Virus record (IMG/VR): IMGVR_UViG_2734482570_000003 | Strand: one strand, 5' to 3' | DNA length: 33,537 bases | Source of the DNA: a virus | Lineage: Duplodnaviria > Heunggongvirae > Uroviricota > Caudoviricetes | Shown here: piece after piece, positions 8,586 to 33,537 of the stretch | How the letters are laid out: each line of letters begins with the position of its first letter | How positions within the stretch are numbered: the first letter of the stretch is position 1 | Program-made: the position numbers and the translations under genes | Notes under the pieces: generated by a model | Databases searched by the model: none | What the model was told of the DNA's origin: nothing | What the model saw: the letters and a program-made list of their open reading frames with translations, nothing else

Positions 8586-8918
8586 TTAAACGATGCTGAT
8601 TGCCGTTCCGGCAAACGCAGTCCGTTTTTTCGTCTCGTCGCTGGCAGCCTCCGGCCAGAGCACATCCTCATAACGGAACGTGCCGGACTTGTAGAACGTC
8701 AGCGTGGTGCTGGTCTGGTCAGCAGCAACCGCCAGAATGCCAACGGCAGCACCGTCGGTGGTGCCATCCCACACAACCAGCTTACGGGTGGCGGTGTCCA
8801 GCATCAGCGGGGTCATTGCAGGCGTTTTCGCACTCAATCCGCCGGGCGCGGTTGCCGTATGTGCCGGGTCACTGTTGCCCAGCGGCTGGTAATGGGTAAA
8901 GGTTTCTTTGCTCGTCAT
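8586..8918 (-). CDS. D: Head decoration protein D
   Basis: Track ORF 8586..8924; start at [12 protein letters not shown] gives 110 aa. Confidence 0.9.
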
Positions 8919-8927
8919 AAACATCCC

Positions 8928-10227: not shown

Positions 10228-10247
<20 letters not shown>
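8928..10247 (-). CDS. C: Head maturation protease/scaffold C with nested in-frame Nu3
   Basis: Track ORF 8928..10361 has an N-terminal extension; GTG start at VTAELRNLPHIASMAF gives 439 aa; overlaps the end of B as in lambda. Confidence 0.85.
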
Positions 10248-13928
<3,681 letters not shown>

Positions 13929-13954
<26 letters not shown>

Positions 13955-14474
13955 TCAGCAACCCCGGTATCAGTTCATCCAGCGCGGCTGCTTTGTTCAT
14001 GGCTTTGATGATATCCCGTTTCAGGAAATCAATATGCCGGTTATCCAGCTCAGGAAAACGTCGCTGCACCGACAGAGGAATACCGTCGAGAATACTGGAT
14101 ATTTCCCTTGCTATACGCGACAGCACGAAAGTACAGAATGCGGTTTCCACCACTTCAGCCGATTCTTTGGCATTTTTCAGTTCCTGCGCCGTCGCCTGAG
14201 CACGAGTCAGGCGATGGCGCTCAAATTCAAGTGTTCCTGGGTGAAGATCTGCCTCGCTGGCCAGCCGCAGTTCTTCAACCTCCCGGCGCAGCTTTTCGTT
14301 CTCAATTTCAGCATCCCTTTCGGCATACCATTTTATGACGGCGGCAGAGTCATAAAGCACCTCATTACCCTTGCCACCGCCTCGCAGAACGGGCATTCCC
14401 TGCTCTTGCCAGTTCTGAATGGTACGGATACTCGCACCGAAAATATCAGCCAGCTGCTTTTTGTTGACTTCCAT
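13929..14474 (-). CDS. Nu1: Terminase small subunit Nu1
   Basis: 181 aa; N-terminal winged-helix segment MEVNKKQLADIFGASIRTIQNWQEQGMP; first gene after cos. Confidence 0.95.
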
Positions 14475-14519: not shown

Positions 14520-14700
14520 AAAAAGCCCGTTTTCAGCATCTGTCGTTTCCTTTCTTTTCAGGGGGTGTTTTAAATAAAAACATGAAGTTACGGCGAAGAA
14601 GAACGGAAACGCCTTAAACCGGAAAATTTTCATAAATAGCGAAAACCCGCGCGCCTTCCGCCCCGTAACAGGCCGGATCGCCGGAAAGGACCCGCAAAGA
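14520..14700. other. cos region (cosB, cosN, cosQ) internal to the window; cosN about 14652-14663
   Basis: Reverse complement of 14581-14700 aligns with the remembered lambda cos flanks; the 12-nt cohesive-end position reads GGGCGGAAGGCG. Confidence 0.75.
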
Positions 14701-14915
14701 TGAGAATAATTATCACTTGCATTAATATCCGGCTTCTTCCACCCTCGCACAGGACTGGCGAGCATGAGGGACAAACCCGCGAATCATTAGCGCGGTAAAA
14801 ACCCGGTGTGCATCGTTTTTGATTATTTCCGCACACTCGCGCAGAGGAGTTCCCCGTCGGGCTACGGTCATGGTTAATGCGGAAATACGGCGACGATGCA
14901 GCGCGGTATTTAATG

Positions 14916-14931
14916 TGCGACCACGGTCGCA
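14916..14931. repeat. sopC-like centromere palindrome TGCGACC-AC-GGTCGCA (copy 1 of 4)
   Basis: Perfect 7-bp inverted arms around a 2-bp centre; one change per arm from the F-plasmid SopB site TGGGACC-AC-GGTCCCA. Confidence 0.6.
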
Positions 14932-14951
14932 AACGAGAAACAAAGAGATTT

Positions 14952-15304: not shown

Positions 15305-15754
15305 TTAATTCAGGCATTGCGTCTTGATGTATTCCTGCAAGTAGTTAACCTGCGCAGTTATCCTGTCGATCCCACTTCGGAGACGGTAATAATTGAGTTC
15401 AGCATCTGCTGTAAGTCTTGGGCTTTCTCCATTGCCCATGCCGCTGGCTCCGGTCGTTGACTTTGCACAGGTGGCGGCGACTTGCAGGCGCTTACGCCCA
15501 GCAGAAACATCAGCACGGAGGCTTTCGATAGTCGCGTTAGCATCAGCAAGCTCCTTTGTATATCTGGCATCGAGTTCCGCTACGTCACGTTGACGCTTCT
15601 GCATATCAGCGATTGTGGATGTGGCTTTATCGCGCTGCTCTTTGTAGGCGATGGCGTTATCACGGTAATGATTAACAGCCCACGACAGGCAGACGATGAT
15701 GCAAATAACCAGAGCGGAGATAATCGCGGTTACCCTGCTCATTGTTGACCCCAC
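15305..15754 (-). CDS. Rz: Spanin inner-membrane subunit Rz (i-spanin)
   Basis: N-terminal TM helix [20 protein letters not shown] then coiled-coil; probable start at MSRV (about 15742); directly after the endolysin gene. Confidence 0.85.
15358..15540 (-). CDS. Rz1: Spanin outer-membrane lipoprotein Rz1 (o-spanin), embedded in Rz in another frame
   Basis: Embedded ORF with lipobox LLGVSAC followed by Pro-rich [13 protein letters not shown]; start codon uncertain. Confidence 0.6.
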
Positions 15755-16239
15755 AAACAGACTTCACGCTCAATCTCACGACGAGTCATCAGGCCTTTCC
15801 ATTGCTTACCGCCAGCAGATATCCAGCGACGTAGCTGATCACATGCGCCTTTGATATCGCCCTGGTTTATTTTGCGAAGAAGCGTCGATGTTCTGAAATT
15901 ACCAGCACCCACGTTGTAAACGAACGAGTAAAGAGCGCCGCGCGTTGTTTCCGGTATATCGACTTTGATGTACGGGTTAATTTGTCTGGCGACAGTGGCA
16001 AGGTCTTTATTCAGGAGAGCTTTGCATTCTGCTTCGGTATACGTTTTACCTAGCATGATGTCTTTTCCAGTGTGTCCATAACATACAGTCCATACGCCAA
16101 CAATATCTTTGTATGGTATGTAACTGACACCTTCCAGACCATCGTTACCACTTGGGCCAGTGATGAGCATAGACGCTATGGCAATAGCCCCGCCACCAAT
16201 AGCAGCTGTGACAGCTTTGCGTAATGATGACTGCATCAT
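15739..16239 (-). CDS. R: SAR endolysin (phage lysozyme, phage 21 R-type)
   Basis: 166 aa; N-terminal Gly/Ala-rich signal-anchor-release segment [21 protein letters not shown]; lysozyme-like core. Confidence 0.85.
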
Positions 16240-16508
16240 ATTTCCTTCGGTGCTCTCTTCCCCAGCTCTCCAATAACCATCGCTGTAGCAGAAAGATTAT
16301 TGGTATTAGTTTTATCCAATATGTCCTGCAATATCTTCGTGCGCTTCATCTGCTCGCGTTTATTGAGCCGGTATGTAAGCACACCGAGGATAATGCTGAA
16401 CGCGACACCGATAATGAAGCCCCAATCCTGCAATGACAGGCTGGCAAAGAACGCAGCAAGACCAGCGCTACCATAAGATGCACTGCTGTATCGTTCATCC
16501 ATCTTCAT
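16236..16508 (-). CDS. S: Putative holin (pinholin-like, two TM segments)
   Basis: 90 aa with two hydrophobic segments ([13 protein letters not shown] and [18 protein letters not shown]); overlaps the endolysin start; position. Confidence 0.6.
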
Positions 16509-16603: not shown

Positions 16604-17725
16604 TTACTCAAATAACTTTTTCACTTCATCAACTGTCTGAAGATAACGTTCGCCCTCAATCTCAATACCTATTGCCTGACGTCCTAACTTCAGCGCAGCT
16701 TTAATAGTTGAGCCTGATCCCATAAAGAAATCGGCAACGATATCTCCGGGGCGTGAACTACTCTTTATAATATGTTCCATCATCGCTGCAGGTTTTTCAC
16801 ATGGGTGCTTGCCAGGATAATATTGCACAGGAGGAAACTCCCATACATCGGTATAAGGTACATCAGCAGTAACATGAAATGGACGGCGTAAATTTTCATA
16901 CTGAGCCTTCAAATCATCATACTGCTTCTTTACTTCCTCATAATGCAATTTCAGATCGCTATAACGCTTTTCATGTTCTGAATAATCAAAATTAAAAGGA
17001 TATGGACACGGGACACCGAGTGAATCTGCCTTCCTGCGAAATAATTCGCATAGTTTATTAAAATCAATTAATGATGGAAGCCGCCACTGCGAATAAGAAA
17101 ACCAGTGTGAACACATCTGCTTTCCTGTCGCTGAATTAATGTCTGCGGCTGATATATCTAACTGACGGCGAGCCAGCGAAAAAGCATCAATTAGTGGAGA
17201 AAAAATATTTTTTCTTAAATCTGCACATTTTGAAGCATAACCTGACTGACCTTTAGCATAACCTGACGCGCCGTAATGCTCTGCAAATAATATTCTTTCA
17301 GTAGCAGGAAAATAAGCCCTTAAACTTTCTTTATGACAACCGCGCCACATACCACTGGGTTTAGCCCAAATGATATGGTTCAGAACATTGAAACGGTCGC
17401 GAGTTAATAATTCAATTTTTGACGCAAGGCGAGAGCCGGTAAACATATACAGGCTGCCATTAGGGGCCAATATCCGCCAAAATTCTGCCAAAAATTCGTC
17501 AATCCACCCCAAAAAGTCAGCATCGCTATCCCACTGGTTATCCCATGCGTTAGCCTTTACGCCGAAGTATGGTGGGTCTGTTGCAATCAAATTGACCGAG
17601 TTATCAGGGATGGTTTTGATAAATTGCAGAGAATCTGCGCAAACGAGTTGTGCGCCATGAATATTAGTGGTTTTGAACATAGCTATTATTTTTTTGCCTG
17701 GGTAAGCTAACCCGGCGATGCGCAT
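16604..17725 (-). CDS. DNA methyltransferase, beta-class amino-MTase (N6-adenine or N4-cytosine), orphan
   Basis: DPPY motif IV near the N-terminus (LIATDPPYFG) and motif I near the C-terminus (DFFMGSGST); no adjacent restriction endonuclease candidate. Alternative start at 17680. Confidence 0.85.
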   Translation of the reverse strand: MRIAGLAYPGKKIIAMFKTTNIHGAQLVCADSLQFIKTIPDNSVNLIATDPPYFGVKANAWDNQWDSDADFLGWIDEFLAEFWRILAPNGSLYMFTGSRLASKIELLTRDRFNVLNHIIWAKPSGMWRGCHKESLRAYFPATERILFAEHYGASGYAKGQSGYASKCADLRKNIFSPLIDAFSLARRQLDISAADINSATGKQMCSHWFSYSQWRLPSLIDFNKLCELFRRKADSLGVPCPYPFNFDYSEHEKRYSDLKLHYEEVKKQYDDLKAQYENLRRPFHVTADVPYTDVWEFPPVQYYPGKHPCEKPAAMMEHIIKSSSRPGDIVADFFMGSGSTIKAALKLGRQAIGIEIEGERYLQTVDEVKKLFE

Positions 17726-17837: not shown

Positions 17838-17925
17838 CTTGTTGGCTGTTGGGTACAAAAAACCCAACTTAACAAAACAATAACTAAAAACCGTCATTTT
17901 GCCAAGCTTTTTCGTTTTTGTGCTG

Positions 17926-17941
17926 TGCGACCGTGGTCGCA
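17926..17941. repeat. sopC-like centromere palindrome TGCGACC-GT-GGTCGCA (copy 2; extends to 22-bp CTGTGCGACCGTGGTCGCACAG)
   Basis: Perfect palindrome; exact reverse-orientation match to copies 1 and 3. Confidence 0.6.
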
Positions 17942-17947
17942 CAGCTT

Positions 17948-18410: not shown

Positions 18411-18575
18411 AATATCCTCCAAATTCATATAGTTAGTGGGTTATTACCCCTCAATGACACGAACTGTAACTCTGCCAAACGAACACATCCAGTGTTATTT
18501 TTCGCTTTTTAGTGAAATTTTTGATTTGCGTTGTTTTCTTGTTTTGGTGTATTTTATGGATATGGAGGCTATAAT

Positions 18576-18887
18576 ATGTTTAACGTGATAACCCACCCTG
18601 CAGCACTGGATGAACTGCTTGAACTACCAGATGATTTGCGAGGTCGCATGACCAGATTAATTGAGCGACTGGAGAAAGAAGGCAACAAACTGAAGATGCC
18701 CCATAGCCGTGTAATAGGTGGAGGGCTTTTTGAACTACGAGTAGGGGATAAAAACATCGCAAGAACGCTGTACGCCTACGCGACTGGTAACGAAATTTAT
18801 CTATTGCATGCATTTGTAAAAAAGACACAGAAAACACCGGTGAAGGCTATCGAAATCGCCAGAACTCGCCTGAAGGAGATGAACTGA
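18576..18887 (+). CDS. Type II toxin, RelE/ParE superfamily (HigB / Gp49-like)
   Basis: Track ORF 18531..18887; GGAGG 8 nt before the ATG at 18576; Gp49/HigB-like sequence pattern; toxin precedes antitoxin. Confidence 0.7.
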   Translation: MFNVITHPAALDELLELPDDLRGRMTRLIERLEKEGNKLKMPHSRVIGGGLFELRVGDKNIARTLYAYATGNEIYLLHAFVKKTQKTPVKAIEIARTRLKEMN

Positions 18888-19174
18888 TGAAAGCGAAAGG
18901 CATCCCGTTTAACGAAGTAAAAGAAAAACTCCTCAACACTCCAGAAGCCGTCAAAGGATATGAAGAGGCCGACAAAGAGCTGGAGATGGTCGAAATGTTA
19001 TACGAAATGAGGGAAAGAGCAGGTTTAACGAAATCAGCTCTGGCTGAACGAATGGGGTTGCGACCGTCAGCCATCAGCCGCCTGGAAAGCAATCCTTTAG
19101 GGGCAAGTATGAAAACTTTGGCTAAATATGCTCATGCCTGCGGCGCAACCATCGATATTCGCGCTGTTTATTAA
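18887..19174 (+). CDS. HTH XRE-family antitoxin (HigA-like)
   Basis: 95 aa; HTH segment LTKSALAERMGLRPSAISRLE; start overlaps the toxin stop (TGATG). Confidence 0.7.
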   Translation: MKAKGIPFNEVKEKLLNTPEAVKGYEEADKELEMVEMLYEMRERAGLTKSALAERMGLRPSAISRLESNPLGASMKTLAKYAHACGATIDIRAVY

Positions 19175-21961: not shown

Positions 21962-22302
21962 ATCATGTTCAAGCGCCTGTCGTAACGACGTATTTCTCCG
22001 TCAGGTAATGACCAGATAAGGTCTGGATCAACCACTACCGATTTCTTCGGCTTTACTCTTGATAGTTTTTTACGGGCGTTTTGCCAGTCCTTGCGTGCTT
22101 GTGCAGACAGAAATATCCCGGAGCCAGAGATATACAAATCACCGCTGGCAGCAAGCTCTCTTGATAAACGACTAACAGCACACCGGCTAATACCAGTTTC
22201 ATCCGCAAGTTGCCTAACCGTTCCTCGTCCATTCAGGCGCACGAGTTCCACAATTTGTTTATTCAGTTCTTCCCTCTGTTCTGGTGTAAAAGCCTTTGCC
22301 AT
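21883..22302 (-). CDS. Putative winged-helix DNA-binding protein
   Basis: 139 aa; HTH-like RQLADETGISRCAVSRLSREL; C-terminal CHDC. Confidence 0.45.
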   Translation of the reverse strand: MAKAFTPEQREELNKQIVELVRLNGRGTVRQLADETGISRCAVSRLSRELAASGDLYISGSGIFLSAQARKDWQNARKKLSRVKPKKSVVVDPDLIWSLPDGEIRRYDRRLNMICHDCRKSEVMQRVLAFYQGNFQEVA

Positions 22303-22901
22303 TACGATTCTCCTTGCCCTTTTACAAGACGGGAGAAAATTGCGGATACATATTTAGCCTGATGAATAGCATCAGCCAGGGCATTGTGTCGTTCGCCATC
22401 AAATGGCATATCTTTTTTAGGATTAAAACCAATAAACTGACCAAGATTAACGATTGTTCGAACATCCTGATCATTAAAATATTCCCACGGACAGGCTAAG
22501 CCAACGCGCTCATAAGCACCGCGTAAAATTACATTATCGAACGTTGCTCCATTTCCCCATACTTTCAATTTTTTTAAATTACATGCATGGCAAGTAATAA
22601 AGTGTGATAATTCAAAAAGTGCATCCTTAATATCAAGGGCATCATTAGTACAAATAGCGGCTCTGGCTTACTTGCTCTGTTTCAACCACCATAAAATGGT
22701 ATCACCATCGGCGATACCACCATTCAACATCGAGCTTCTGAGATTCACTGGCACATAAAAAGTAGGACCTAATTCCTCACTTTCTGGAGAAAAAAACACT
22801 GCCCCGATAGAAACAATTGGAGCACATGTGTTAGTACCCATTGTTTCAAGGTCAATCATTACATCAGACCGTTTCCTGTCGTAAATAATCTGATTAGTCA
22901 C
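22302..22901 (-). pseudogene. DEDDh-type 3-prime-5-prime exonuclease interrupted by a single in-frame TAA
   Basis: ORFs 22668..22901 and 22302..22568 are in the same frame; the 33 codons between them are open; Exo I-like motif (MIDLETMGT) is in the first part and Exo III-like motif (HNALADAIHQAKY) in the second. Confidence 0.6.
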
Positions 22902-22924: not shown

Positions 22925-23152
22925 CTATACCCAAATTTTCTGTTGATATGTTCTGGATGGTTTTGGCGTTCTTTCTGATTCAGGTAAATGAACATAAACG
23001 CAATATCCATCACCTAAAAAATCAGAACGAACAACCAGAACTTTCTTACCACGCCGCCGATAAGTATCTGAAAGACGCTCTGCTTCATCATGCGTCATCG
23101 GCCCCTGCTTAAATGGCGTTATTTTCATTTTCTTGTGCGACCACGGTCGCAC
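22925..23152 (-). CDS. Hypothetical small protein
   Basis: 75-aa ORF; start uncertain. Confidence 0.3.
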   Translation of the reverse strand: MRPWSHKKMKITPFKQGPMTHDEAERLSDTYRRRGKKVLVVRSDFLGDGYCVYVHLPESERTPKPSRTYQQKIWV

Positions 23153-23429
23153 CCTCTCTGATTTCCAAGTAACGCTTAATCCAAAGATTTTCTATATGCT
23201 TATTACCTGGCTGATTTGATAAATACCAATCGGCAATTACAGACTGCTTATTACTATCTGGTCGTGTCCTGTAACCACAAGTTGGACACCAGATAACATA
23301 TTCATTTCTTACCCCCGAATACCTTAATTCTGGCTTCGACGGTTTCCTGAACATAACTTGTTTACAAAGACAGAATGGCACTTCCTGCCCGATGGCGTTT
23401 GATGATTTCACTGCGCTTCTCCGCCGCAT
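23109..23429 (-). CDS. Hypothetical protein with CxC...CxxC motif
   Basis: 106 aa; FCLCKQ ... WCPTCGY. Confidence 0.4.
   Translation of the reverse strand: MRRRSAVKSSNAIGQEVPFCLCKQVMFRKPSKPELRYSGVRNEYVIWCPTCGYRTRPDSNKQSVIADWYLSNQPGNKHIENLWIKRYLEIREGATVVAQENENNAI
23136..23151. repeat. sopC-like centromere palindrome TGCGACC-AC-GGTCGCA (copy 3)
   Basis: Identical 16-mer to copy 1; lies in the 3-prime end of the 23109..23429 ORF. Confidence 0.6.
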
Positions 23430-24072
23430 TTAATAATGCAGTTCGATTTAAGCTCAGACATCGCGACTTAATTAAAAGCCAGCGTTCTTTATAATCTTGT
23501 CTCCAGCTATCAATAGATATATTCAGTAGAAAACTCAGATGCCTGTCCTGTTCTCTCTCATCAACTGCCTCAGCACACGTAAGTTCTGATTTAACCTGTT
23601 GTGCCGCGTAATAAATCAATTTCCGCATGGCTTTTTTCGTGGAGGCCTTCATTTTTTTAAAGCCGCCCCCCGAATGAGCAACCAGAAAATCAAGCCATAA
23701 CCACTGACAAACAATCACATCATTGTTGTAATCAGGCTTGCATCCGTAGCAATAATAAAGCCAGGCTGATTCCTCGTTATTCAACTGACCAATAGCCCTG
23801 CGCCAGCTGGCGCTCTGAAAATCAATATCAGTGAGCAACATTGATGATTGTTTAAATGTTTTCCCCTGGTGGAATCTAACCGGCTCAGCAGGAACGGACA
23901 CTTCGTATGAGTTATCATCCCCCACACTGATTGACCGGACTGGTTTATTGTTAAACCGTCCTGATCTACCGAGACGCATCTGCTCAAGCTGGACCTCCAG
24001 AATGCCACGCTGGCGATAATGAACATCAGCCAATGCCGTAGAGACGCAGCTGCGTATATACTCAAGCTCCAC
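23362..24072 (-). CDS. Possible late-gene antiterminator Q-like protein (assignment by position only)
   Basis: 236-aa ORF immediately downstream of cro, where N15-type immunity regions carry Q; no motif verified. Confidence 0.35.
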   Translation of the reverse strand: MELEYIRSCVSTALADVHYRQRGILEVQLEQMRLGRSGRFNNKPVRSISVGDDNSYEVSVPAEPVRFHQGKTFKQSSMLLTDIDFQSASWRRAIGQLNNEESAWLYYCYGCKPDYNNDVIVCQWLWLDFLVAHSGGGFKKMKASTKKAMRKLIYYAAQQVKSELTCAEAVDEREQDRHLSFLLNISIDSWRQDYKERWLLIKSRCLSLNRTALLNAAEKRSEIIKRHRAGSAILSL

Positions 24073-24283
24073 GCTTACGACTCTCCTTAATCGACTGCTT
24101 TACCCGCCGAGTTGTAAAGTCACTCTTCAGCTTATAAGCAGTACGAACTTCAATATCGCTTTGCCGCAATGAAGGAATCTCTCCAGCGGTTAACCATTGG
24201 TAAACAGCTCCGGGTGTTACACCTACCCCTGCCGCTGCTTTTTCTACACTGCCAAAATGGCGAATAAGTTCTTCTGGTTTCAT
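24062..24283 (-). CDS. cro: Cro-like HTH regulator
   Basis: Track ORF 24062..24310; probable start MKPEEL; HTH AAAGVGVTPGAVYQWL; divergent from the repressor gene. Confidence 0.7.
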   Translation of the reverse strand: MKPEELIRHFGSVEKAAAGVGVTPGAVYQWLTAGEIPSLRQSDIEVRTAYKLKSDFTTRRVKQSIKESRKRGA

Positions 24284-24310: not shown

Positions 24311-24352
24311 TTAAAGCCAGCTATAATAAATAAATTTTATAGCCAGCTATAA
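24311..24352. promoter_or_regulatory. Two operator-like 16-bp palindromes in the cro / cB divergent control region
   Basis: TTATAGC-CA-GCTATAA (perfect) at 24337-24352 and TTAAAGC-CA-GCTATAA (one mismatch) at 24311-24326, centres 26 bp apart; AT-rich -10-like hexamers overlap. Confidence 0.65.
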
Positions 24353-24374: not shown

Positions 24375-24971
24375 ATGAAAACACGAGGCGAACGACTGAA
24401 AGCACGCCGTTTAGAGATGAAGCTGACGTTGCGAGAAGTTGCTGAGGCTGTCGATATCTCTATAGCAGGCGTCCAAAACTTAGAACGTGGCGACGTAATG
24501 CCGTCACTGGAGATAGGTATTGCCCTGGCTAAGTGCTTACGCAAGCCAGTGCATTGGGTGCTATATGGGACAGAATATGACCCTGATCGCATTCCTGTTA
24601 TTGGCACAACTGAAAGTGGGCCGGATGAAGAGTGGAAGCCGGGACAGGTTCCAAATACTGAGCGATTCCTGCCATTCATCAGCCAGCGCAATACTGTGTA
24701 TGCGTTAACTATCAGCAATCTTACGCAGGGAAACTATCAGCCAGGCGATTTTCTCCTGGTCGATTCTGCGCTGGAACTGGTCCCCGGCGAGGATGTTCTG
24801 GTTCGTGATACTGCAGGAAATATCACTATCCAGCGCCTGGCCCGTTTTGATGATGAAAATTACTATCTGGATGGAACAAACTCACAACGCGCCATCTTCA
24901 GGAAAAGCGATCTTGAATTTGTTCACCAAATAGTCGGAACGATCAAATCATTCATGGTTGAGGGTAGATGA
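24375..24971 (+). CDS. cB: Prophage repressor (CI/CB-like; N-terminal HTH, C-terminal LexA/S24-like domain)
   Basis: 198 aa; HTH LTLREVAEAVDISIAGVQNLERG; C-terminal GDFLLVDSALELVPGEDVLV resembles an S24 fold; divergent from cro with operators between. Confidence 0.8.
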   Translation: MKTRGERLKARRLEMKLTLREVAEAVDISIAGVQNLERGDVMPSLEIGIALAKCLRKPVHWVLYGTEYDPDRIPVIGTTESGPDEEWKPGQVPNTERFLPFISQRNTVYALTISNLTQGNYQPGDFLLVDSALELVPGEDVLVRDTAGNITIQRLARFDDENYYLDGTNSQRAIFRKSDLEFVHQIVGTIKSFMVEGR

Positions 24972-25216: not shown

Positions 25217-28200
25217 ATGACATTAAACGATTTCTATGCGGATCGCTTTGGCAGCGATCCGTTCTCGCTAATTGAAGCAGCACGGGATGAACTAACCGAG
25301 CTGGCACAGATGGCTGGTATCAACTGGCCTGCCTGTTCCGACAACATCCAACTCAACCCTCGCGGGGGGGTTGAGCGTTACTCTTCATACAATAAAACAT
25401 CTCCAGAAGCTCTCGAAAAGAGCCTGAAAGGACGCGTAGAAATTTACTCCAGGCTGGAACACAGCAAAGGGATTGATTACCCGTTCATTAACTTCGTCCA
25501 TAAAGGCAGCGATGCTGGCTCATGGAGCGGTTTCTCCTTCCTGTTTTCTGAATATCGCCGTGAGCAACAACGGAATAATGCGACCGTGGTCGCACAACCG
25601 GAAGAAGAACGGGAAAGAATAGAACGTCAGGCCGAAGCACGTCGTCGCCGTGAAGAACAAAAACGAATTAATGACCTGAAAAACAACCAAATGGACCATG
25701 AACGTTTGCTGGGATGGCTGGCATTCCACAGCGCGTGGGAACATGCTCCGGCTGAAGACGGCTCATGGCCATATGCGATTAAAAAAGGTATTCGTGACGT
25801 TTTTAGTTCATGTGATGTGCGTCGCGTGACCAGTCACGACAGTGCGAAATGGAGCCGGGGGCCAACCACATATATGGCTATCCCTCTGGCTCACCTGGAC
25901 AGTCGTTATGATGGTCGTATTGTGGGTTGGCAGCGAATCGACAAACAAGGTGGGAAATACCAGACCAGCGCAGTAACCAGCGGCGATTTCGTCGGTGCCT
26001 GCTTTGTTATCGGTGAGCTGAAAGGGGCGCAAAACATCGCTGTTACAGAAGGTTTTGCTACTGGTGCATCCATCTGGCTTGCCACGAAAAAAGATAAACG
26101 CTTTGACGCTGTGGTTGTCGCTGTATCCGCTAACAACATGGTTCATGTTGTGGAACAACTGGTAAACATGTACCCGGCGGCAAAAATCACCTGCGCACTG
26201 GATAATGACCGGAAATCTGCCACAGAAGGAAAAGGGAATACCGGCCTGCGGACTGGCTATGAAATCTTATCGAAATTCAACGATGTCCGCTGCGTCTATC
26301 CAACTTTTGAAGACGATCCGCAAATGGAGTGCAGTGACTTCAACGACCTGCACAAACTACGTGGACTTCGTGAAACAGCACGTCAACTATTTGCAACAGC
26401 AAACCGCCTGAAAACCGGTACTGATTTGCTATCTCTGACGCTCAACCGCCTGAAGACAATTAAGCGGGATAACCGTCGTACTTTTGCCAAAGAGCTGCTG
26501 AGAGCGGTGGATATTGGCATGCTAACCTGTCCGGTTCCTAACAGTCCGTCAGATTTATTTAACATGTTCTGCATCGTTCTGCGTGAAATGGGACTGGAAA
26601 ATATCTATCGTGCTACGGTAAAAGACCACATTGCCCGTCGCCTGAATAAAAAGTGCCGTATTGCCCAGGCTCCGCGCTCTTTCAGCGAACGCATAACTGA
26701 TCCCAATAAACGACCTCAACATATCACCTATAAGCGTTTTGAAACTTCGGTAATGACCGATGATGTCCTGAAGTACGTGCAATCACTACAGGGGATAGTC
26801 ATCGTCCGTGCTGGTATGGGTTCCGGCAAATCTACTGGATTGTTACGACCGTTAATGCATAGCTCAGAACGTGGTATCTCTGTTGCTCACCGTGTCTCCC
26901 TTATTGGTGGCCTGTGGGAAATGATGACAGAAGGAAAAGGTGTAAAAGCCGATATCCTGCACTATCAGGATCCTGGCTATCAGGAAATGGCTCCATACGC
27001 CAGTAAACTGACCATCTGCATAAACTCGATTGTTAAAAACTGCTGGCAACCGTTGATGCGCCAGCACGACTATTTTGGCTTTGACGAGGCCACACAAGGG
27101 CTACGTGCCGTTCTTTCCGGTCGGGCTATGGAAAACCCGGTGGCTGTATTCAATACGCTAATTGACGCGCTGGCCAGAACGGAACAACACCCAATCATGG
27201 TGGATGCTGATGCGAACGATCTGCTGGTTGACCTGGCTGAACTAGCTATGAAACGCCGTGAAGAACTAGGTTTACCGGCATGGCTGCAGATCCACGTAAT
27301 TGAATTACCTGTTGATGTTCGCAACCGCGAAACAGGTGAGCCAATCCGGGTTTTTTATACAGAAAAAGATCGCATCATGACCGAGGTGGTGAAAGCTGTA
27401 TCGGATGGCGAAAAAATCATGTTGGCCACCGACAGCTCCACCTTTGCAGAAGATGTGACAGCCACCCTGAGAATGCATTTTCCTGGTAAGAAATTTCTGT
27501 GTGTAAACCAGAAAAACAAACCAGAGCCAGAAGTTGAAGCATTTACCAATCAACCGAAAAAGATGGTCAAAAAATACGACGGCCTGATTTATAGCCCGTC
27601 TATTTCATCCGGCGTGTCGATTGAGCAAAAACATTTTGACCGTCATTTCGGCATGTTCTGTGGTGAAGTTGTACCCAGCGACGCAGTGCAAATGCTACGC
27701 CGCGACCGTACAGCAAAAGAATTTATTATCGGCTTTGATAAAGCTCGTGCAAAACGTGAAACTGACCCGCAAAAAATAGAACGAGCATTCGCCCAGGCAT
27801 TGCTTGCTACTGCAGGTATGAACGGTGAACTGACGGATGTCGTTTTCGATGGCGACCGTATATCAATGGGGGTGGCCAATACCGACTTTACCAGGATGAA
27901 AATTAAAGCAGCCGCAATTGAAGCGTCTGCACGTAACGACTACGCCAGCAACATGATCTGCATCATGCACAGCGACGGTTATAAGATATCGCCGCTGGCC
28001 ACCGATTATGCTGCAAATGATATCGGTAAAGATCTGCGTAAAGAAGCGCGGGATATTGTGTGGGAACAGACACTGGATCTGCATCTCAATACAGAAACTC
28101 CACAAGAATCAGAGCGTGAAGAACTGCTAAAAAAACGCGCGCTAACGCTTGAAGAACAGGCAAAACTTGTCCGCTGGGATATTGAGAACGAACTGAAACT

Positions 28201-29212
28201 ACCGGTTGAAGAAGGCACGCTGAAATTCTATTTCGATGGTGCTCGAGACAAAGTTCGCCGCTATGAAACAATGCTTTTAGATGAGGTAACAGCTCGTCGT
28301 TACGACCGGGAAGAAGCAGCCATCAATTTTACCTACGCATACCGTCAGGCGGGACAGTGGCAATATTTTGTAGTGACCGCAATGACTCGCGAGCAGGCTG
28401 ATGATGTCTTTAAAACTAAATTCCCTGGAATAATCGACTACAAGGTAAAAGCTACTCCTACTGTTGAAGTCGGGGCGCGCGGTTTCTATGCGCTTAAATC
28501 AGCAACTCTCCGGCAGTACTTTATCGACTGCGGTATCAACCCTGAGACTATGACCGGCGAGGCGACTCAGGAGCGTCTCAAATTTGCTCGAGATAACCTC
28601 ATGACAGCCGAACGCCGTGACCTGTTGAATAACGTTCTGCACATTGGTGGTTTTATGACGCCAAAAGGGAAGCCTAAAGTGCCGGAAGCGTTGTTTAAAA
28701 ACATTTGCGACTCTCTTGGCCTTAAAACAGGTAAACGTCGCGGCAGAGACGGCGATAAGCGTCCAACCTTGCGTTTTGTTGAGCCTGAATCAGCGGCATT
28801 TATGCTGGATATTCTTGCTCAGCGTCAGAAAGATGGCCTAACCCTGAAAACGCGTAAAGCCGAGAAGACCGCCATCGAAATGGATCGCGATTTGGATCTC
28901 AATATATATATGGATGATAAAACGCGATCCACAAACGAGCAGGTTCAAAACGCCCCTCATTCAGTAATTTCTGAGGCTTTGGCCGTGTTGCCAGTGGCTG
29001 TACCTGAGTCCTGGGCGATGAGTGCGCTTTCCAGTGAGGAGTTGGCCACCATGTCATCATGGTCATCAGCCAGCATAGCTATGACGTTTGCATCCCTGTA
29101 CCTCACAGAGTTCATGGATCACCTTTCCAGCAATGAGCTGCGGCGGTTACGTGAATACATTACGGGGAATAGCTCATGCAGCTACGAAGAGCAGGGCGCT
29201 TTCTATGGGTAA
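25217..29212 (+). CDS. repA: Replication protein RepA (N-terminal TOPRIM primase domain plus P-loop helicase domain)
   Basis: 1331 aa; TOPRIM-like motifs (AVTEGFATGAS, ALDNDRKS); Walker A AGMGSGKST and Walker B-like FGFDEA; adjacent to cB as in N15-type phages. Confidence 0.85.
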   Translation: MTLNDFYADRFGSDPFSLIEAARDELTELAQMAGINWPACSDNIQLNPRGGVERYSSYNKTSPEALEKSLKGRVEIYSRLEHSKGIDYPFINFVHKGSDAGSWSGFSFLFSEYRREQQRNNATVVAQPEEERERIERQAEARRRREEQKRINDLKNNQMDHERLLGWLAFHSAWEHAPAEDGSWPYAIKKGIRDVFSSCDVRRVTSHDSAKWSRGPTTYMAIPLAHLDSRYDGRIVGWQRIDKQGGKYQTSAVTSGDFVGACFVIGELKGAQNIAVTEGFATGASIWLATKKDKRFDAVVVAVSANNMVHVVEQLVNMYPAAKITCALDNDRKSATEGKGNTGLRTGYEILSKFNDVRCVYPTFEDDPQMECSDFNDLHKLRGLRETARQLFATANRLKTGTDLLSLTLNRLKTIKRDNRRTFAKELLRAVDIGMLTCPVPNSPSDLFNMFCIVLREMGLENIYRATVKDHIARRLNKKCRIAQAPRSFSERITDPNKRPQHITYKRFETSVMTDDVLKYVQSLQGIVIVRAGMGSGKSTGLLRPLMHSSERGISVAHRVSLIGGLWEMMTEGKGVKADILHYQDPGYQEMAPYASKLTICINSIVKNCWQPLMRQHDYFGFDEATQGLRAVLSGRAMENPVAVFNTLIDALARTEQHPIMVDADANDLLVDLAELAMKRREELGLPAWLQIHVIELPVDVRNRETGEPIRVFYTEKDRIMTEVVKAVSDGEKIMLATDSSTFAEDVTATLRMHFPGKKFLCVNQKNKPEPEVEAFTNQPKKMVKKYDGLIYSPSISSGVSIEQKHFDRHFGMFCGEVVPSDAVQMLRRDRTAKEFIIGFDKARAKRETDPQKIERAFAQALLATAGMNGELTDVVFDGDRISMGVANTDFTRMKIKAAAIEASARNDYASNMICIMHSDGYKISPLATDYAANDIGKDLRKEARDIVWEQTLDLHLNTETPQESEREELLKKRALTLEEQAKLVRWDIENELKLPVEEGTLKFYFDGARDKVRRYETMLLDEVTARRYDREEAAINFTYAYRQAGQWQYFVVTAMTREQADDVFKTKFPGIIDYKVKATPTVEVGARGFYALKSATLRQYFIDCGINPETMTGEATQERLKFARDNLMTAERRDLLNNVLHIGGFMTPKGKPKVPEALFKNICDSLGLKTGKRRGRDGDKRPTLRFVEPESAAFMLDILAQRQKDGLTLKTRKAEKTAIEMDRDLDLNIYMDDKTRSTNEQVQNAPHSVISEALAVLPVAVPESWAMSALSSEELATMSSWSSASIAMTFASLYLTEFMDHLSSNELRRLREYITGNSSCSYEEQGAFYG
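25579..25594. repeat. sopC-like centromere palindrome TGCGACC-GT-GGTCGCA (copy 4, inside repA, encodes ATVVA)
   Basis: Perfect palindrome within the repA coding sequence. Confidence 0.6.
25825..25838. repeat. Palindrome family B CGTGAC-CA-GTCACG (copy 2, inside repA)
   Basis: Exact 14-mer match to the 19753 copy. Confidence 0.5.
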
Positions 29213-29400: not shown

Positions 29401-29727
29401 ATGTCTACTACTGCATTTTTGGACAAACTTGATTACCGTCAGCTGCAGTTCTGCCGGGATGAATGCGAACGACGCATTAGGGCTATCCAGGAGGAAGAAA
29501 AAAAGGTCGCCTGGGCTGTAACAGATCGTGGCCTTATCTTTGGCTGGTTCCGTACGGAGGATTATCTGAAAGCAGTGGAATTATTGGCGCGTAAGGCTGC
29601 TGAGCGTTGGGAACTAGCCGACAAGGAAAACCCGGAGACGAAGTATGAACTGAATCTCTACATCGAGGGCAACCGTCTACCATTGTCAGAGTATAACGCT
29701 TTGTTTGCTGATGGTGAGTGGGGTTAA
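29401..29727 (+). CDS. Hypothetical protein
   Basis: 108 aa; GGGAG RBS about 9 nt upstream. Confidence 0.55.
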   Translation: MSTTAFLDKLDYRQLQFCRDECERRIRAIQEEEKKVAWAVTDRGLIFGWFRTEDYLKAVELLARKAAERWELADKENPETKYELNLYIEGNRLPLSEYNALFADGEWG

Positions 29728-29729
29728 AA

Positions 29730-30125
29730 ATGGCTGTTCAATCATACAAATACGAATCCCCTTTGGATAAGGGATACATTCGTATCAAGTTAAGTCGTTC
29801 TCAGCATAAGGCTATTTTTAAGGTAAGGAAAATTCGCATATTGGATGCGTATGCGTATTACTACAACGGTGAAAATGTTGTTGTTGAACACTTTCTTGCA
29901 CGATGGTTTGTAGCTCTGATTTTTGTCCCTCTCCTGTTAATTGGTACTTTTGTGGATGGTTTTCCTAGTACATGGCGGGAGATAAAGAAAGGCCTATTCC
30001 CGCATAAGTACGGCAGATTTTCGCAAGATAGCTGGCGAGTTATACCTGGTAAACATTCTGTAGATGAGCAACCGATTGTTGATTCCTGGTTGAATCGTAT
30101 GGCTGATGCTAAAAAAGTTGATTGA
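29730..30125 (+). CDS. Hypothetical membrane protein (one TM helix)
   Basis: Track ORF 29718..30125; start MAVQSYKYE; TM WFVALIFVPLLLIGTFV. Confidence 0.5.
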   Translation: MAVQSYKYESPLDKGYIRIKLSRSQHKAIFKVRKIRILDAYAYYYNGENVVVEHFLARWFVALIFVPLLLIGTFVDGFPSTWREIKKGLFPHKYGRFSQDSWRVIPGKHSVDEQPIVDSWLNRMADAKKVD

Positions 30126-30152: not shown

Positions 30153-30440
30153 GTGAAGAGTTTTATTTTTGTTTTATGTTTTGCCTTTTCTGCTGCAGTT
30201 TATGCCCAGGAAGATAGCATTTCTGTTATTAACTCATCAGCGGAGCTTGCATGTAAAAATAATCCCGATGCTGCATCAAAAGAGTCATGCAAAGAGCTGC
30301 TCCTTTCGACGGCTGCTTTTGCTTCTGAAAATGCAAAATTTTATTCAGCCTTTTGTCGCGGCTATGTTAAGGACGAAGATAAAGAAAAATGTGATGATGC
30401 CGGTAAGTTAGTTAGGTATTTCCAATCTCTTAATCAGTAA
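30153..30440 (+). CDS. Small secreted Cys-containing protein (signal peptide)
   Basis: AGGAG RBS then GTG start; signal peptide MKSFIFVLCFAFSAAVYA / QEDS; four Cys in the mature part. Confidence 0.55.
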   Translation: MKSFIFVLCFAFSAAVYAQEDSISVINSSAELACKNNPDAASKESCKELLLSTAAFASENAKFYSAFCRGYVKDEDKEKCDDAGKLVRYFQSLNQ

Positions 30441-30574: not shown

Positions 30575-30653
30575 CTCCGCTACGGTAAATCCCGTAGCCG
30601 GGCGTAGGAACCCGAGTAAATGAAGCGCACAACACGCGCCAGCGTGTTTTTTT
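30575..30653 (+). ncRNA. Candidate small regulatory RNA / leader transcript (c4-type antisense RNA analogue)
   Basis: Non-coding stretch with hairpin GCTACGG-TAAATC-CCGTAGC and intrinsic terminator ACACGC-GCCA-GCGTGT plus T6 (30632-30653); GCGTAGGAAC at 30602 recurs at 30768 in the downstream leader. Confidence 0.3.
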
Positions 30654-30816
30654 GTGTGTAAAATCTGCGTACACCAAATTTATGGTGGCTCAGATGGGGC
30701 AGCTTTTAGCTGGCCGGTTTCTTCGTTTACCGGTATTCCTACCCCCGTCTGGGCTACCGCCATATAGAGCGTAGGAACTCTGGTGGTAGCACGACCAATT
30801 AAACGGAGTGCATACC

Positions 30817-30981
30817 ATGTTCAAATTCAAATTTGCGGCAATCGTTCGCACAGACAAAAAGTCACACATCCATCATCTTTCCACCATCGCGTCATCTGAA
30901 CGGGAAGCTCGTCGCCAGTTCGCCAGCCGGTTTGTCCTGGTATTGTCTGCCCGTATTCCGGTGCGCGAGGTGGCTGCATGA
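30817..30981 (+). CDS. Small protein, first gene of the putative antirepressor-type operon
   Basis: 54-aa ORF, below the track threshold; GGAG RBS about 9 nt upstream; stop overlaps the next start (ATGA). Confidence 0.45.
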   Translation: MFKFKFAAIVRTDKKSHIHHLSTIASSEREARRQFASRFVLVLSARIPVREVAA

Positions 30982-31211
30982 ATCAGGTAAAAATGAACAC
31001 TGTTGGCCTGCTGGAATCGTTGGATGAACGTCTGGCTCAGGTCTATGCGCTCGTATCATCAGCCCATCGGACAATCTCCAGTTGTGAGGCGTCGATTTAT
31101 CTCTCAGAAGCAGGGAAACTCCTTCAAATTGCGTGTGAGCTAACACACGAAGCACAGGGTTATTCAGCATCGCTCTCGTCGCAATTGCTGCACGATAAGG
31201 AGGCTGAATGA
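30978..31211 (+). CDS. Hypothetical protein, second gene of the operon
   Basis: 77 aa; translationally coupled on both sides by ATGA overlaps. Confidence 0.5.
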   Translation: MNQVKMNTVGLLESLDERLAQVYALVSSAHRTISSCEASIYLSEAGKLLQIACELTHEAQGYSASLSSQLLHDKEAE

Positions 31212-31372
31212 GCGCGTTAGCAGTATTTTCCTTTCAGGAAGAGCATCAGGTTCGTGTAGTGATGATTAACGGCGAACCGTGGTTTGTTGCATCTGATGTG
31301 TGTATGGCGGCGGGTATTGATTCTACGGCCATCAGAAAGTTGGATGAGGACGAAAAGGGGCAGGCGAGGTAG
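31208..31372 (+). pseudogene. Truncated antirepressor (Bro-N / AntA N-terminal domain only)
   Basis: 54-aa ORF MSALAVFSFQEEHQVRVVMINGEPWFVASDVCMAAGI... carries the Bro-N signature (GEPWFVA-DVC) but stops after about 54 codons, where full antirepressors run about 180-250 aa. Confidence 0.5.
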
Positions 31373-31384
31373 ACCACACAACAA

Positions 31385-31407
31385 GGCACCGATAATTCGG
31401 TGCCTTT
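31385..31407. terminator. Hairpin between the convergent ant-type operon and telN (possible bidirectional terminator)
   Basis: GGCACCG-ATAATT-CGGTGCC followed by TTT on the plus strand; T-rich on the other side. Confidence 0.45.
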
Positions 31408-31417: not shown

Positions 31418-33325
31418 TTATCCGAAATATGTCAGCCATGCTAACTGCATTGCTGATATAGGGCTGTTTGCACTGCCGGACCAAGCATAATTCTGGCCAT
31501 TATAATGAAACTCAACAACGTATGAGCCATCACCAATATTTCTCACAGGCTTAAATACCGGCTTAGATACAGGTGAAGAAGGCGCGGGCGGTTGCTGTTC
31601 TTCTACGCTCTCTTCCTCTTCCTCTTCCTCTTCCTCTTCCTCTATCTCAATTTCGTCGTCATCCAGATCGTCATCCTCTGATAATTCATCCGTCTGTTCA
31701 GGTATTGCTTCCAGCTCTTCTTCGTCAGGCATAACGATTTCTGGAGAATCTATTTTCAGCTGCCATTGTCCATTTTCGCCAACAAATTGCCCCAGAGCAT
31801 CAGCAGCAAACTCCAGGTATCGACTAATCATTGTAGGGCTAAATTTGAATGCTCTTAGAGTGCTGTTCGTGATTTTTATAGAGGGGTCCTGCTCTACCAG
31901 CTGCTTAACTGTGTTATGCAGACGAACTCCGGCATCTCCTCTGGCGAATCCTGGCATTTCGTCATCAAGCTGCTGCAATGCTTCCAGCCTGGTATTTTCG
32001 TTTCCAGTATTTGGCCTCCATGTCTTTGAGAAGTTGGCCAGCTTGAATTGCTTATAGTGTAATTGAGTGTTTTCATCGTCATGGCCTAAAATTTCCATAA
32101 AGAAAACATCCTCATCTACGTTTTTCCAACGAGGATCTACGCGGAAAAACATTTCATACGCAATACGGGCATAAATAGCACGACTATCTTTATAAACACG
32201 GCGGTCATCTTTGAAAAATGATTTAACCCACGGGTTAAAAGCCTTTGCTAATATGGCATTAATCCGTCCGTTTTCAGAGCGTGTGTCGTTATCTCCATAA
32301 CCTTTAACGACATCATCAAAATCAGATGCTGCTGGGCATGAGCGAAGTACATTTATTAAATAAACAAATGTTTTTGCTTCGCATAATGTATATATTTTTC
32401 TGGTTATATCATCAGAAGTTCTTTTTTTTGCTTGGCCTAAAAAATCAACGGTATACTTACCAGAAACAGTAAATGTACCTTGATACATAATCTCAATCAT
32501 TCGTCTTCCTGACAATGCAGCAAGTGCAAATGCCAAAGGAGCCATACCTGAACGAGTGTTTAGATTATTTAATGTAGCAGGGCTATTTATAATATCGTAA
32601 ATAGCTTGCATATATTTAGGGTAATCAATGACCACCACGTTACGTTTCTTATTGTGCAGAACGTCTGCCCATCGTTGCTGGATAGATGCGCGTTCGGCAG
32701 GGCTTAGTTGAAGATGATAGAGAATCTCATGGTTAACTTTTAGCTGATTCAACTCCTCAAGTAAGGCAGATCCTTGCTGTAGTAATTTATATAAATAATC
32801 GCGCTTATCTTTCCAGTTATCGCTAGTTAAATCAGAAATGGCGAATTGCCACTCTTTATATTTATTTGATAATTTTAATAACTTATTATGACTTTTGTTA
32901 TCACCAATTCTGATATTAGATAAATCTTCTGATAAAGGGAGAATTAATTTTAATTTTGCCTGTAAAGCTGACATTCTCTGGCGAATATCGGCAGCAGGTA
33001 GAGAAAGCCATGATAATAGCTCCTCATTATATAAAGGATACTTTTCAGATAGGCGATGTATATTTTTTTCAAAGCTATGATGAAGTTTATCATCAAACCG
33101 TTTTCTGGCCCTGCTCATATAGGCATTGAATGTGTTGGCTGTAATTCTTTTTTCTAATCCTTTCCCCCTAAACTTTCGCTTGTCATTAAATAATGCATTT
33201 TTAAATTTTAATGCAACAGCTTTTATTTTTTTTGTTTTTTCCCCTTGAGGACGGTCAGAGTTATCTATTGACTCAACATCGCTAACAAGTGAGTTTATTA
33301 ATTCACCGATTTTTACTTTGCTCAT
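31418..33325 (-). CDS. telN: Protelomerase (telomere resolvase) TelN
   Basis: 635 aa, close to the 631 aa of N15 TelN; long acidic linker; adjacent to the telomere palindrome. Confidence 0.85.
   Translation of the reverse strand: MSKVKIGELINSLVSDVESIDNSDRPQGEKTKKIKAVALKFKNALFNDKRKFRGKGLEKRITANTFNAYMSRARKRFDDKLHHSFEKNIHRLSEKYPLYNEELLSWLSLPAADIRQRMSALQAKLKLILPLSEDLSNIRIGDNKSHNKLLKLSNKYKEWQFAISDLTSDNWKDKRDYLYKLLQQGSALLEELNQLKVNHEILYHLQLSPAERASIQQRWADVLHNKKRNVVVIDYPKYMQAIYDIINSPATLNNLNTRSGMAPLAFALAALSGRRMIEIMYQGTFTVSGKYTVDFLGQAKKRTSDDITRKIYTLCEAKTFVYLINVLRSCPAASDFDDVVKGYGDNDTRSENGRINAILAKAFNPWVKSFFKDDRRVYKDSRAIYARIAYEMFFRVDPRWKNVDEDVFFMEILGHDDENTQLHYKQFKLANFSKTWRPNTGNENTRLEALQQLDDEMPGFARGDAGVRLHNTVKQLVEQDPSIKITNSTLRAFKFSPTMISRYLEFAADALGQFVGENGQWQLKIDSPEIVMPDEEELEAIPEQTDELSEDDDLDDDEIEIEEEEEEEEEEESVEEQQPPAPSSPVSKPVFKPVRNIGDGSYVVEFHYNGQNYAWSGSANSPISAMQLAWLTYFG
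31609..31640 (-). repeat. Hexanucleotide (CTCTTC)n coding repeat giving a poly-Glu tract in TelN
   Basis: Plus strand ctcttcctcttcctcttcctcttcc; encodes EEEEEEEEEEEE. Confidence 0.8.
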
Positions 33326-33415
33326 CTTTCCTCTCCTGATTATCCGCTCGGATTATCGTAACACAATTTGAGAATAAGATAACTAATAACGCGTTAACTT
33401 AGTCACAAACTAACA

Positions 33416-33458
33416 GAACACAATAACGGATAATAAACAAAAACACAATATCGGAACG
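33416..33458. repeat. Direct repeats AACACAATA(A/T)CGGA (two copies) between telN and the telomere site
   Basis: gaacacaataacgga (33416-33430) and aacacaatatcggaa (33441-33455). Confidence 0.4.
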
Positions 33459-33495
33459 CTAAAATTTGTTCCTTGACTTTGTTCTAAAGATCAGC

Positions 33496-33537
33496 ACATA
33501 ATTCCCCATTATACGCGCGTATAATGGGGAATTATGT
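33496..33537. other. Telomere resolution site (telRL/telO-type palindrome), truncated by the window end
   Basis: Perfect 42-bp palindrome ACATAATTCCCCATTATACGCG|CGCGTATAATGGGGAATTATGT, dyad centre between 33516 and 33517, running to the last base of the window. Confidence 0.8.

Follow-up and report, generated by a model that had tools for sequence, protein, structure and literature searches.

A lambda-type virion module on an N15-type telomere replicon: viral DNA from Escherichia coli that very probably derives from a linear phage-plasmid with hairpin ends

The stretch of viral DNA analyzed here (IMG/VR record IMGVR_UViG_2734482570_000003, 33,537 nucleotides, referred to as the window) very probably represents about 70% of an N15-type temperate telomere phage-plasmid of Escherichia coli, i.e., a linear plasmid with hairpin ends that carries a virion module of the lambda type. 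The window is oriented as a prophage, with a telomere site at one terminus and the cos site in its interior, while sopAB, the second telomere and the genes for the tail tip and the fibres lie outside it. A model that saw only the letters and their open reading frames (ORFs) had already proposed an N15-type linear plasmid with hairpin ends. This sequence-only reading is supported by our analysis, because the protelomerase proved genuine and the palindrome next to it contains the telO core of N15 and phiKO2. Two features at the right end of the window carry this conclusion:

31418..33325, minus strand: telN, protelomerase (telomere resolvase), 635 amino acids, ATG start (Pfam, PDB entry 2V6E, alignment)
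33496..33537, no strand: telomere resolution site (telO core and part of the telRL arms), a perfect palindrome cut by the window end

The product of telN matches all four TelK domains of Pfam (TelK_N, TelK_muzzle, ResT-TelK_cat and TelK_stirrup) above the cut-off, and its residues 1-536 align with the crystal structure of phiKO2 TelK (2V6E) with an E-value of 2e-295. At the amino acid level, it is 77% identical to TelN from N15, 81% to TelK (over residues 1-541) and 97.8% to the corresponding protein of phage PhiR46_1 (PV340565.1). In a four-way alignment of these proteins, Tyr424 of the window protein aligns with Y425 of N15 TelN and TelK and is invariant, including in PhiR46_1; the shift in numbering goes along with a one-residue deletion near position 306. 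Residues R275, K300, K379, R382 and H415, which we propose as the remainder of the active site, are also invariant among the four closely related sequences. Together with Tyr424 they fit the pattern R-K-(Y/K)-R-H-Y given for the active site of TelA (PMC3558466). As judged from the alignment, the assignment to the active site is tentative for every residue but the tyrosine. A PDB sequence search with E-values up to 10 did not reach Agrobacterium TelA, and the active-site list for that enzyme is therefore not directly alignable. For N15 TelN, the Y425F mutant is catalytically inactive (PMC12624138). The protelomerase of 635 residues claimed in the sequence-only reading is thus confirmed by the ORF, the four domains, the match to 2V6E and the catalytic tyrosine, and the protein comparison with N15 and phiKO2 suggested there gave the values stated above for TelN and 75% identity to both phages for the replication protein RepA. 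As a side observation, a run of GAG/GAA glutamate codons at 31590-31650 corresponds to an acidic linker of TelN (residues ~560-575), the length of which varies among relatives in the alignment. According to published truncations, the C-terminal part of TelN is dispensable for resolution and end protection (PMC12624138).

The palindrome consists of two arms of 21 nucleotides each, 33496-33516 and 33517-33537 (ACATAATTCCCCATTATACGC followed by GCGTATAATGGGGAATTATGT), which are 100% complementary with zero spacer and meet at a dyad between 33516 and 33517. We estimate that 33.5 kb of sequence should contain a perfect palindrome of 42 bp about 1e-8 times. When folded as DNA, the sequence reaches -17.7 kcal/mol compared with -3.6 +/- 1.7 kcal/mol for shuffled versions (z = -8.2), and 0 of 200 shuffles were as good. 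The model had noted a perfect palindrome following telN at the end of the window. The palindrome is real, with 21 plus 21 nucleotides, but it is situated 5' of telN rather than after it and is, in addition, truncated by the window end. It lies 170 bp upstream of the telN start codon, and the geometry in N15 is alike, with telRL at 24775-24830 and the telN start at 24995. The 24-bp core, CCCATTATACGCGCGTATAATGGG, is identical in telRL of phiKO2, and N15 shares the central 22 bp. At the very center stands CGCGCG, which is the native sequence between the scissile positions of TelK (PMC3558466). Further out, the arm (GATCAGCACATAATT...) resembles L3 of N15 (TATCAGCACACAATT...), and one compensated position distinguishes the arm in the window, AATTCCCC, from that in PhiR46_1 and in a second named phage, YDC107_1 (CP025712.1), which both read AATTTCCC. 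A complete site of 56 bp would be made up of GATCAGCACATAATTCCCCATTATACGC and its complement, and in the closest relative the self-complementary stretch runs on past the point where the window ends. By analogy with N15, the molecule from which the window derives would have carried a physical hairpin at this site.

Some observations weigh against this interpretation and are considered here. The window stops 21 nucleotides past the dyad, within the part common to telL and telR, and can therefore not separate a hairpin tip from an internal telRL junction. A circular record exists for the related element MARGA_3, in which sopA comes after the palindrome and the core contains a mismatch. The genes and the second telomere named at the outset are not part of the window, a sigma-70 scan upstream of telN performed no better than shuffled sequences, so that no telN promoter was called, and this copy suffers from a 1.6-kb deletion and a stop codon in an exonuclease gene, both of which are taken up further below.

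The indications that the palindrome is indeed an end come from near-identical records. Two plasmids, pCAVP367-48 (NZ_CP145143.1) and pB16EC0268-3 (CP088810.1), are essentially the same element as the window. The former is 99.9% identical to it, with identical bases at 99.7% of window positions, two single-nucleotide polymorphisms (SNPs) in the 18.7-kb plasmid arm and a divergence of ~0.3% in the virion arm. The latter is ~100% identical from ~12 kb to the window end, with one SNP in the last 12 kb, and is diverged by 2-4% in the virion arm left of ~12 kb. The record for pB16EC0268-3 contains a perfect inverted duplication about the exact dyad of the window, with telN on the minus strand followed by telN on the plus strand, and a second inversion beside sopA ~47 kb away. 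This double inversion is the signature of long reads rounding two hairpins. YDC107_1 likewise shows an inverted duplication at the window dyad, the deposited form of pCAVP367-48 is a linear plasmid of 47.6 kb that is bounded by telN on one side and by sopA on the opposite side, and sites for both telL and telR are annotated in PhiR46_1. The dyad also marks, to within ~100 bp, the first or last position of at least nine plasmid records, and in one of these the match is exact. Three records can be mentioned separately as they are assembly artefacts of hairpins: CP088810.1 has 81 kb, is labelled 'circular' and continues through both telomeres, in the phage record CP025712.1 the telN-repA end is inversely duplicated, and NZ_JAUDQL020000005.1, a 'circle' of 47 kb, shows a T-to-A mismatch within its telO core.

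In principle, the palindrome could also be an internal telRL site. The sequenced molecule would then have been a circular replicative intermediate or virion-form DNA, or the assembler would have joined telL and telR. The circular MARGA_3 record, in which sopA is located 0.6 kb beyond the palindrome, speaks for this possibility, and it could represent either a genuine telRL form or an assembler join. Such joins are easily made since the telomere arms share 21-27 nucleotides, and the window ends exactly where the arms of MARGA_3 diverge. On the other hand, an internal cos combined with a terminal telomere site is the arrangement of a prophage, the closest relatives were deposited either as linear molecules or as hairpin read-through duplications, and the circular form of N15 is transient. 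We therefore regard an internal telRL as quite unlikely and prefer the terminal telomere of a linear plasmid. It should be added that position 33537, 21 nucleotides past the dyad, coincides with the point of divergence of the MARGA_3 arms and that position 1 of the window falls inside gene K. Both window ends resemble assembler break points, one at a palindrome and the other at a repeat that also occurs in other lambdoid prophages, rather than biological ends. A self-conjugate edge in a de Bruijn graph with k=41 is a plausible cause for the end at 33537 that we considered and on which we do not rely.

The second line of evidence is provided by the functions for replication, immunity and partition, which are of the N15 type throughout:

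25217..29212, plus strand: repA, multidomain replication initiator (primase/helicase) of the N15 type, 1331 amino acids (full-length homology, NCBIfam)
24375..24971, plus strand: cB, prophage repressor, 198 amino acids, HTH_3 domain and S24-like C-terminal part (78% amino acid identity to N15 gp38)
24062..24283, minus strand: cro, 73 amino acids (Pfam P22_Cro; 87% amino acid identity to N15 gp39)
23362..24072, minus strand: Q antiterminator, 236 amino acids (Pfam Phage_antiter_Q; 67% amino acid identity to N15 gp40)
24311..24352, no strand: two candidate 16-bp operator near-palindromes, TTAAAGCCAGCTATAA and TTATAGCCAGCTATAA, in the divergent promoter region of cB and cro
25578..25595, no strand: centromere-like 18-bp palindrome inside repA
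23135..23152, no strand: centromere-like 18-bp palindrome downstream of Q
17925..17942, no strand: centromere-like 18-bp palindrome upstream of the methylase gene and the late region
14915..14932, no strand: centromere-like 18-bp palindrome between the lysis cassette and cos

Along its entire length, RepA shares 75% amino acid identity with gp37 of N15 and with gp35 of phiKO2. It matches NCBIfam CyRepA1 with 259 bits (cut-off 200) and shows weak Pfam matches to Toprim_3 and Herpes_ori_bp, in line with the RepA primase-helicase of 1331 residues that had been proposed before. In N15, the origin of replication lies within the repA gene. The immunity switch formed by cB and cro, also part of the earlier proposal, was recovered as a divergent gene pair with Q alongside. 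The two 16-bp palindromes between them may be operators for CB, as judged by their position. The pattern GTGCGACCNNGGTCGCAC has four matches in the window compared with 0.00 expected, and motif and relative positions of the four centromere-like palindromes match the annotated partition sites of phiKO2 as well as those of N15. The cognate sopAB genes reside beside the other telomere in all full-length relatives examined. RepA, cB/cro/Q, the anti-immunity region described in the following and the dispersed centromere sites together substantiate the N15-type replication arm of the sequence-only reading.

The region between repA and telN corresponds in position to immA and is listed here together with several smaller features:

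30579..30652, plus strand: isrK-like RNA, immA leader (match to Rfam RF01394)
30678..30764, plus strand: C4 antisense RNA, immA leader (match to Rfam RF01695), directly downstream of the isrK-like RNA
30817..30981, plus strand: icd-like ORF of the immA operon (named by the Prokaryotic Genome Annotation Pipeline, PGAP, in near-identical records)
30978..31211, plus strand: antA-like ORF of the immA operon (PGAP names in near-identical records)
31208..31372, plus strand: truncated antB remnant, 54 amino acids (Pfam match to Bro-N)
31383..31406, no strand: hairpin AAGGCACCG-ATAATT-CGGTGCCTT, a putative bidirectional terminator situated where truncated antB and telN converge with their 3' ends (read from the sequence)
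29401..29727, plus strand: small ORF downstream of repA (64% identical to N15 gp35)
29730..30125, plus strand: small ORF downstream of repA
30153..30440, plus strand: small ORF downstream of repA, 95 amino acids, hydrophobic N-terminus (homologue in PhiR46_1 labelled 'Spackle exclusion protein')
18574..19174, plus strand: toxin of the RelE/ParE family (Gp49) and HTH antitoxin (Pfam Gp49 and HTH_3; PGAP names; homologous to N15 genes 49/48)

The leader RNAs, isrK-like and C4, score 62.5 bits with Rfam RF01394 (gathering threshold 50) and 73.6 bits with RF01695 (gathering threshold 45), and the ORFs at 30817..31372 are 76.6% identical to N15 genes 30-32 at the nucleotide level. The antB remnant covers only positions 1-41 of the 96 positions of the Bro-N profile and comprises 54 amino acids compared with ~260 in N15, phiKO2 and YDC107_1, the last of which encodes a full-length BRO antirepressor. 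As PhiR46_1 and the closest plasmids are equally truncated, this is a feature of the clade and not private damage. A bidirectional terminator is annotated in phiKO2 at the place equivalent to the hairpin listed above. The three ORFs at 29401-30440 yielded no match in Pfam or NCBIfam, and the name 'Spackle' for the one at 30153-30440 is without family support.

The sequence-only reading had stated that an integrase is missing. This was borne out, as the scanned ORFs yielded no domain of an integrase family and the annotations of the full-length near-identical elements list no integrase; tRNA genes were not found in the window either. An integrated lambdoid prophage would have to use the protelomerase-like tyrosine recombinase as its integrase, and TelN does indeed belong to the tyrosine-recombinase/topoisomerase IB superfamily (PMC3558466). 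However, the window has no chromosomal flanks, the near-identical records are all plasmids, the relatives possess the full plasmid tool-kit (RepA, centromeres, SopAB), and TelN is 81% identical to TelK, for which crystal structure and assays identify the hairpin as the product. We consider integration so improbable that it can practically be dismissed; it is refuted by the context in the relatives, i.e., by many independent colinear records. With catalytic residues present and both an integrase and chromosomal flanks absent, none of the findings that the model had named as speaking against a telomere phage was made, and a linear plasmid remains our interpretation.

The virion arm of this plasmid is that of lambda:

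1..14474, minus strand: lambda virion module with K (truncated, starts ~536), L, M, H, T, G, V, U, Z, FII, FI, E, D, C/Nu3, B, W, A and Nu1

Positions 1-14651 are colinear with lambda (NC_001416) positions 14667-13 in a single alignment with 96.9% nucleotide identity, and K runs off the window start. The products of Nu1, A, B, E, V, H and L are 93-99% identical to their lambda counterparts and 33-90% to those of N15, with the N15 proteins A, B and E at 87-90% amino acid identity. Colinearity from Nu1 to K and conserved cosQ and cosB flanks characterize the module as lambda-type, while the cosN 12-mer is a variant. The previous statement that the head and tail genes from Nu1 to K look close to lambda can therefore be sharpened: with 96.9% identity over 14,651 bp, K being truncated, they are true lambda and not merely lambda-like. 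Right of cos, lambda has nothing in common with the window except for a 76% patch in Rz, and the window differs from lambda in lacking int/xis, O/P and cI/N.

Both arms of the mosaic described in the sequence-only reading, a lambda-type arm and an N15-type arm, were verified. The architecture itself is not new, however, because N15 already has lambda-related virion genes, and the mosaic is therefore an allele replacement within a shared architecture. N15 (NC_001901) exhibits the same gene order as the window, telRL-telN-immA-repA-cB-cro-Q-...-lysis-cos-virion genes, shares the telO core, has its four centromere palindromes in matching places, and its TelN, RepA and CB are 77%, 75% and 78% identical to those of the window. 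At the same time, nucleotide identity amounts to 74% over only 69% of the window, the virion genes are distant alleles, the telRL arms are imperfect and cosN is different. For phiKO2, telO core and centromere motif (GTGCGACCACGGTCGCAC) are identical to those of the window, whereas the plasmid arm is only ~72% identical on the nucleotide level, and the part of phiKO2 that was compared (positions 20000-51601, downstream of its head and tail genes) yielded no nucleotide match to the virion arm of the lambda type. The whole-window comparison that had been proposed was run as well and gave identical bases at 43% of the window for lambda (virion arm only) and 51% for N15 (both arms, ~74% identity). 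In the strict sense of the International Committee on Taxonomy of Viruses, the genus Ravinvirus is delimited by ~70% genome-wide nucleotide similarity to N15. The ratio of identical bases to window length, 0.51 against N15 with 70% of the genome covered, is lower than that, although the National Center for Biotechnology Information files YDC107_1 under Ravinvirus.

The same combination of arms occurs in the two named phages. PhiR46_1 joins a lambda virion module to an N15-type arm just as the window does (97% nucleotide identity over 98% of the window) and also resembles it in the cosN 12-mer and the truncated antB. YDC107_1 has a similar architecture (96% over 94%). In both phages, the window segment 20.3-21.1 kb is replaced.

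The existence of these relatives bears on the question whether the mosaic is an assembly chimera, in which a chromosomal lambda-like prophage was joined to an unrelated N15-like plasmid through sequence shared near cos. A donor would nearly always be available, given that 3004 of 5426 complete E. coli genomes contain lambda-like virion modules, and the left end of the window breaks inside K, as is typical of a repeat-induced contig end. Nevertheless, junction, gene order and cosN variant are identical in PhiR46_1, YDC107_1, pCAVP367-48, pB16EC0268-3 and MARGA_3, long-read assemblies among them, and pCAVP367-48 follows the window colinearly through the junction, with 99.9% identity. Many independent colinear records effectively refute a chimera, and we give it next to no credence. 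The region in which the two arms of the natural element meet and the plasmid arm to the right of it contain the following features:

14652..14663, minus strand: cosN cohesive-end 12-mer GGGCGGAAGGCG (direct reading; lambda-like cosQ and cosB flanks)
14734..14904, no strand: single copy of a 171-bp sequence, deletion scar (comparison with relatives)
15305..15754, minus strand: Rz-like spanin of the lysis cassette (annotations of relatives)
15739..16239, minus strand: lysozyme of the lysis cassette (annotations of relatives)
16236..16508, minus strand: holin of the lysis cassette (annotations of relatives)
16604..17725, minus strand: DNA N6/N4 methyltransferase (Pfam N6_N4_Mtase; 84% amino acid identity to N15 gp52)
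22302..22859, minus strand: DEDDh 3'-5' exonuclease gene (Rv2179c-like, homologue of N15 gene 41), interrupted by TAA at 22668-22670

The lambda cosN sequence, GGGCGGCGACCT, was not found in the window in a search that allowed up to one mismatch. The window variant differs from it at five positions despite a terminase A protein that is 99% identical to that of lambda, and it is common to the window and PhiR46_1. Two changes are private to the copy in the window. First, the 171-bp sequence is present twice, as a direct repeat flanking ~1.6 kb, in PhiR46_1, YDC107_1, MARGA_3, pB16EC0268-3 and pCAVP367-48. Since the relatives carry the repeat on both sides of this segment, it was presumably lost from the window by repeat-mediated deletion. 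The two ORFs of the segment in the relatives (286 and 149 amino acids) have no match in Pfam. Second, an A at 22670 in place of the C found in three relatives changes codon 64 of the exonuclease gene from GAA to TAA (E64*), which either makes it a pseudogene or reflects a sequencing error. Unlike the window, pCAVP367-48 and pB16EC0268-3 retain both the 1.6-kb segment and an intact exonuclease gene.

Because of the deletion and the stop codon, full phage competence of this copy is not assured, and it could be a defective derivative, i.e., a telomere plasmid that no longer forms plaques. Both changes being confined to this copy and the shortening of the Bro-N protein AntB to 54 amino acids would agree with such a state. 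Yet the truncated antB is also found in PhiR46_1, which was deposited as a phage propagated on ECOR13, all lambda morphogenesis ORFs of the window have their full length, with 93-99% identity to lambda, and neither the deleted ORFs, which lack any family match, nor the exonuclease have a known essential role. A defective derivative is thus unlikely in our view, and we continue to regard the window as part of a temperate phage-plasmid.

Comparison of the closest records also yielded insight into the recent history of the virion arm. In the plasmid arm (14734-33537), the window differs from pB16EC0268-3 and pCAVP367-48 by 0-2 SNPs in 12-19 kb. Relative to pCAVP367-48, 14 SNPs are clustered within 385 bp of gene A (12608-12992). 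That the virion arms of the three closest plasmids diverge in patches agrees with a recent exchange of homologous sequence with lambda-like prophages. Whether the virion module is repeatedly and recently overwritten by homologous recombination with chromosomal lambda prophages is a matter on which we see the arguments evenly balanced.

The following course of events is drawn from the established biology of N15. In the lysogen, the element would persist as a linear plasmid of ~46-47.6 kb, both ends of which are covalently closed hairpins. RepA would start bidirectional replication at an origin inside its own gene, and passage of replication through the hairpins would generate palindromic inverted-repeat junctions. 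A TelN dimer would bind the palindrome, cut 6 bp apart about the dyad (CGCGCG) by means of Tyr424 and reseal each strand onto its own complement, such that two hairpins are regenerated. SopAB, encoded on the arm outside the window, would partition the copies via the four dispersed 18-bp centromere palindromes, and the RelE/ParE-type toxin-antitoxin pair may confer extra stability. CB would keep the lysogenic state by repressing cro/Q and repA, while the icd/antA operon, gated by the C4 RNA, is predicted to act as an anti-immunity system able to override CB. During lytic growth, Q would switch on late transcription of the lysis genes and the lambda virion module, and the lambda-type terminase would cut the variant cosN and package the genome.

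The element is already known. It is in GenBank in the form of plasmids and named phages, the mosaic has been reported in the literature, and nothing of substance about it is new. Of 5426 complete E. coli genomes, 16 contain the element or a relative with 96-99.9% identity, and 22 PLSDB plasmids, including some from Shigella sonnei, E. fergusonii and E. albertii, match at a coverage of at least 80%. A preprint from 2025 describes N15-like phage-plasmids from clinical Enterobacteriaceae in which the structural cassette shares considerable identity with lambda and the plasmid region is similar to phiKO2 and NAR688 (10.1101/2025.09.12.675607). Our literature search found no paper describing PhiR46_1. 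The N15 group appears in Pfeifer 2021, Pfeifer 2024 and the tyPPing preprint, but a subgroup with a lambda cassette is not specifically named there, and the lambda mosaic of E. coli is not a subject of the paper on Klebsiella telomere phages.

The value of the present analysis lies mainly in annotation. Hairpin ends are handled poorly by assemblers, with the result that such elements routinely enter the databases as "cryptic plasmids", false circles or double-length inverted duplications, and a telO palindrome beside telN at the end of a contig is a reliable flag for a linear hairpin replicon. The element is also relevant to linear vectors based on TelN/tos. Furthermore, it offers a natural example of a lambda virion module on a non-integrating replicon and is thus relevant to the flow of genes between phage-plasmids and prophages. 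If the virion module is indeed overwritten time and again by recombination with chromosomal lambda prophages, the telomere plasmid would be a stable chassis that draws on integrated prophages for its host-range and virion alleles.

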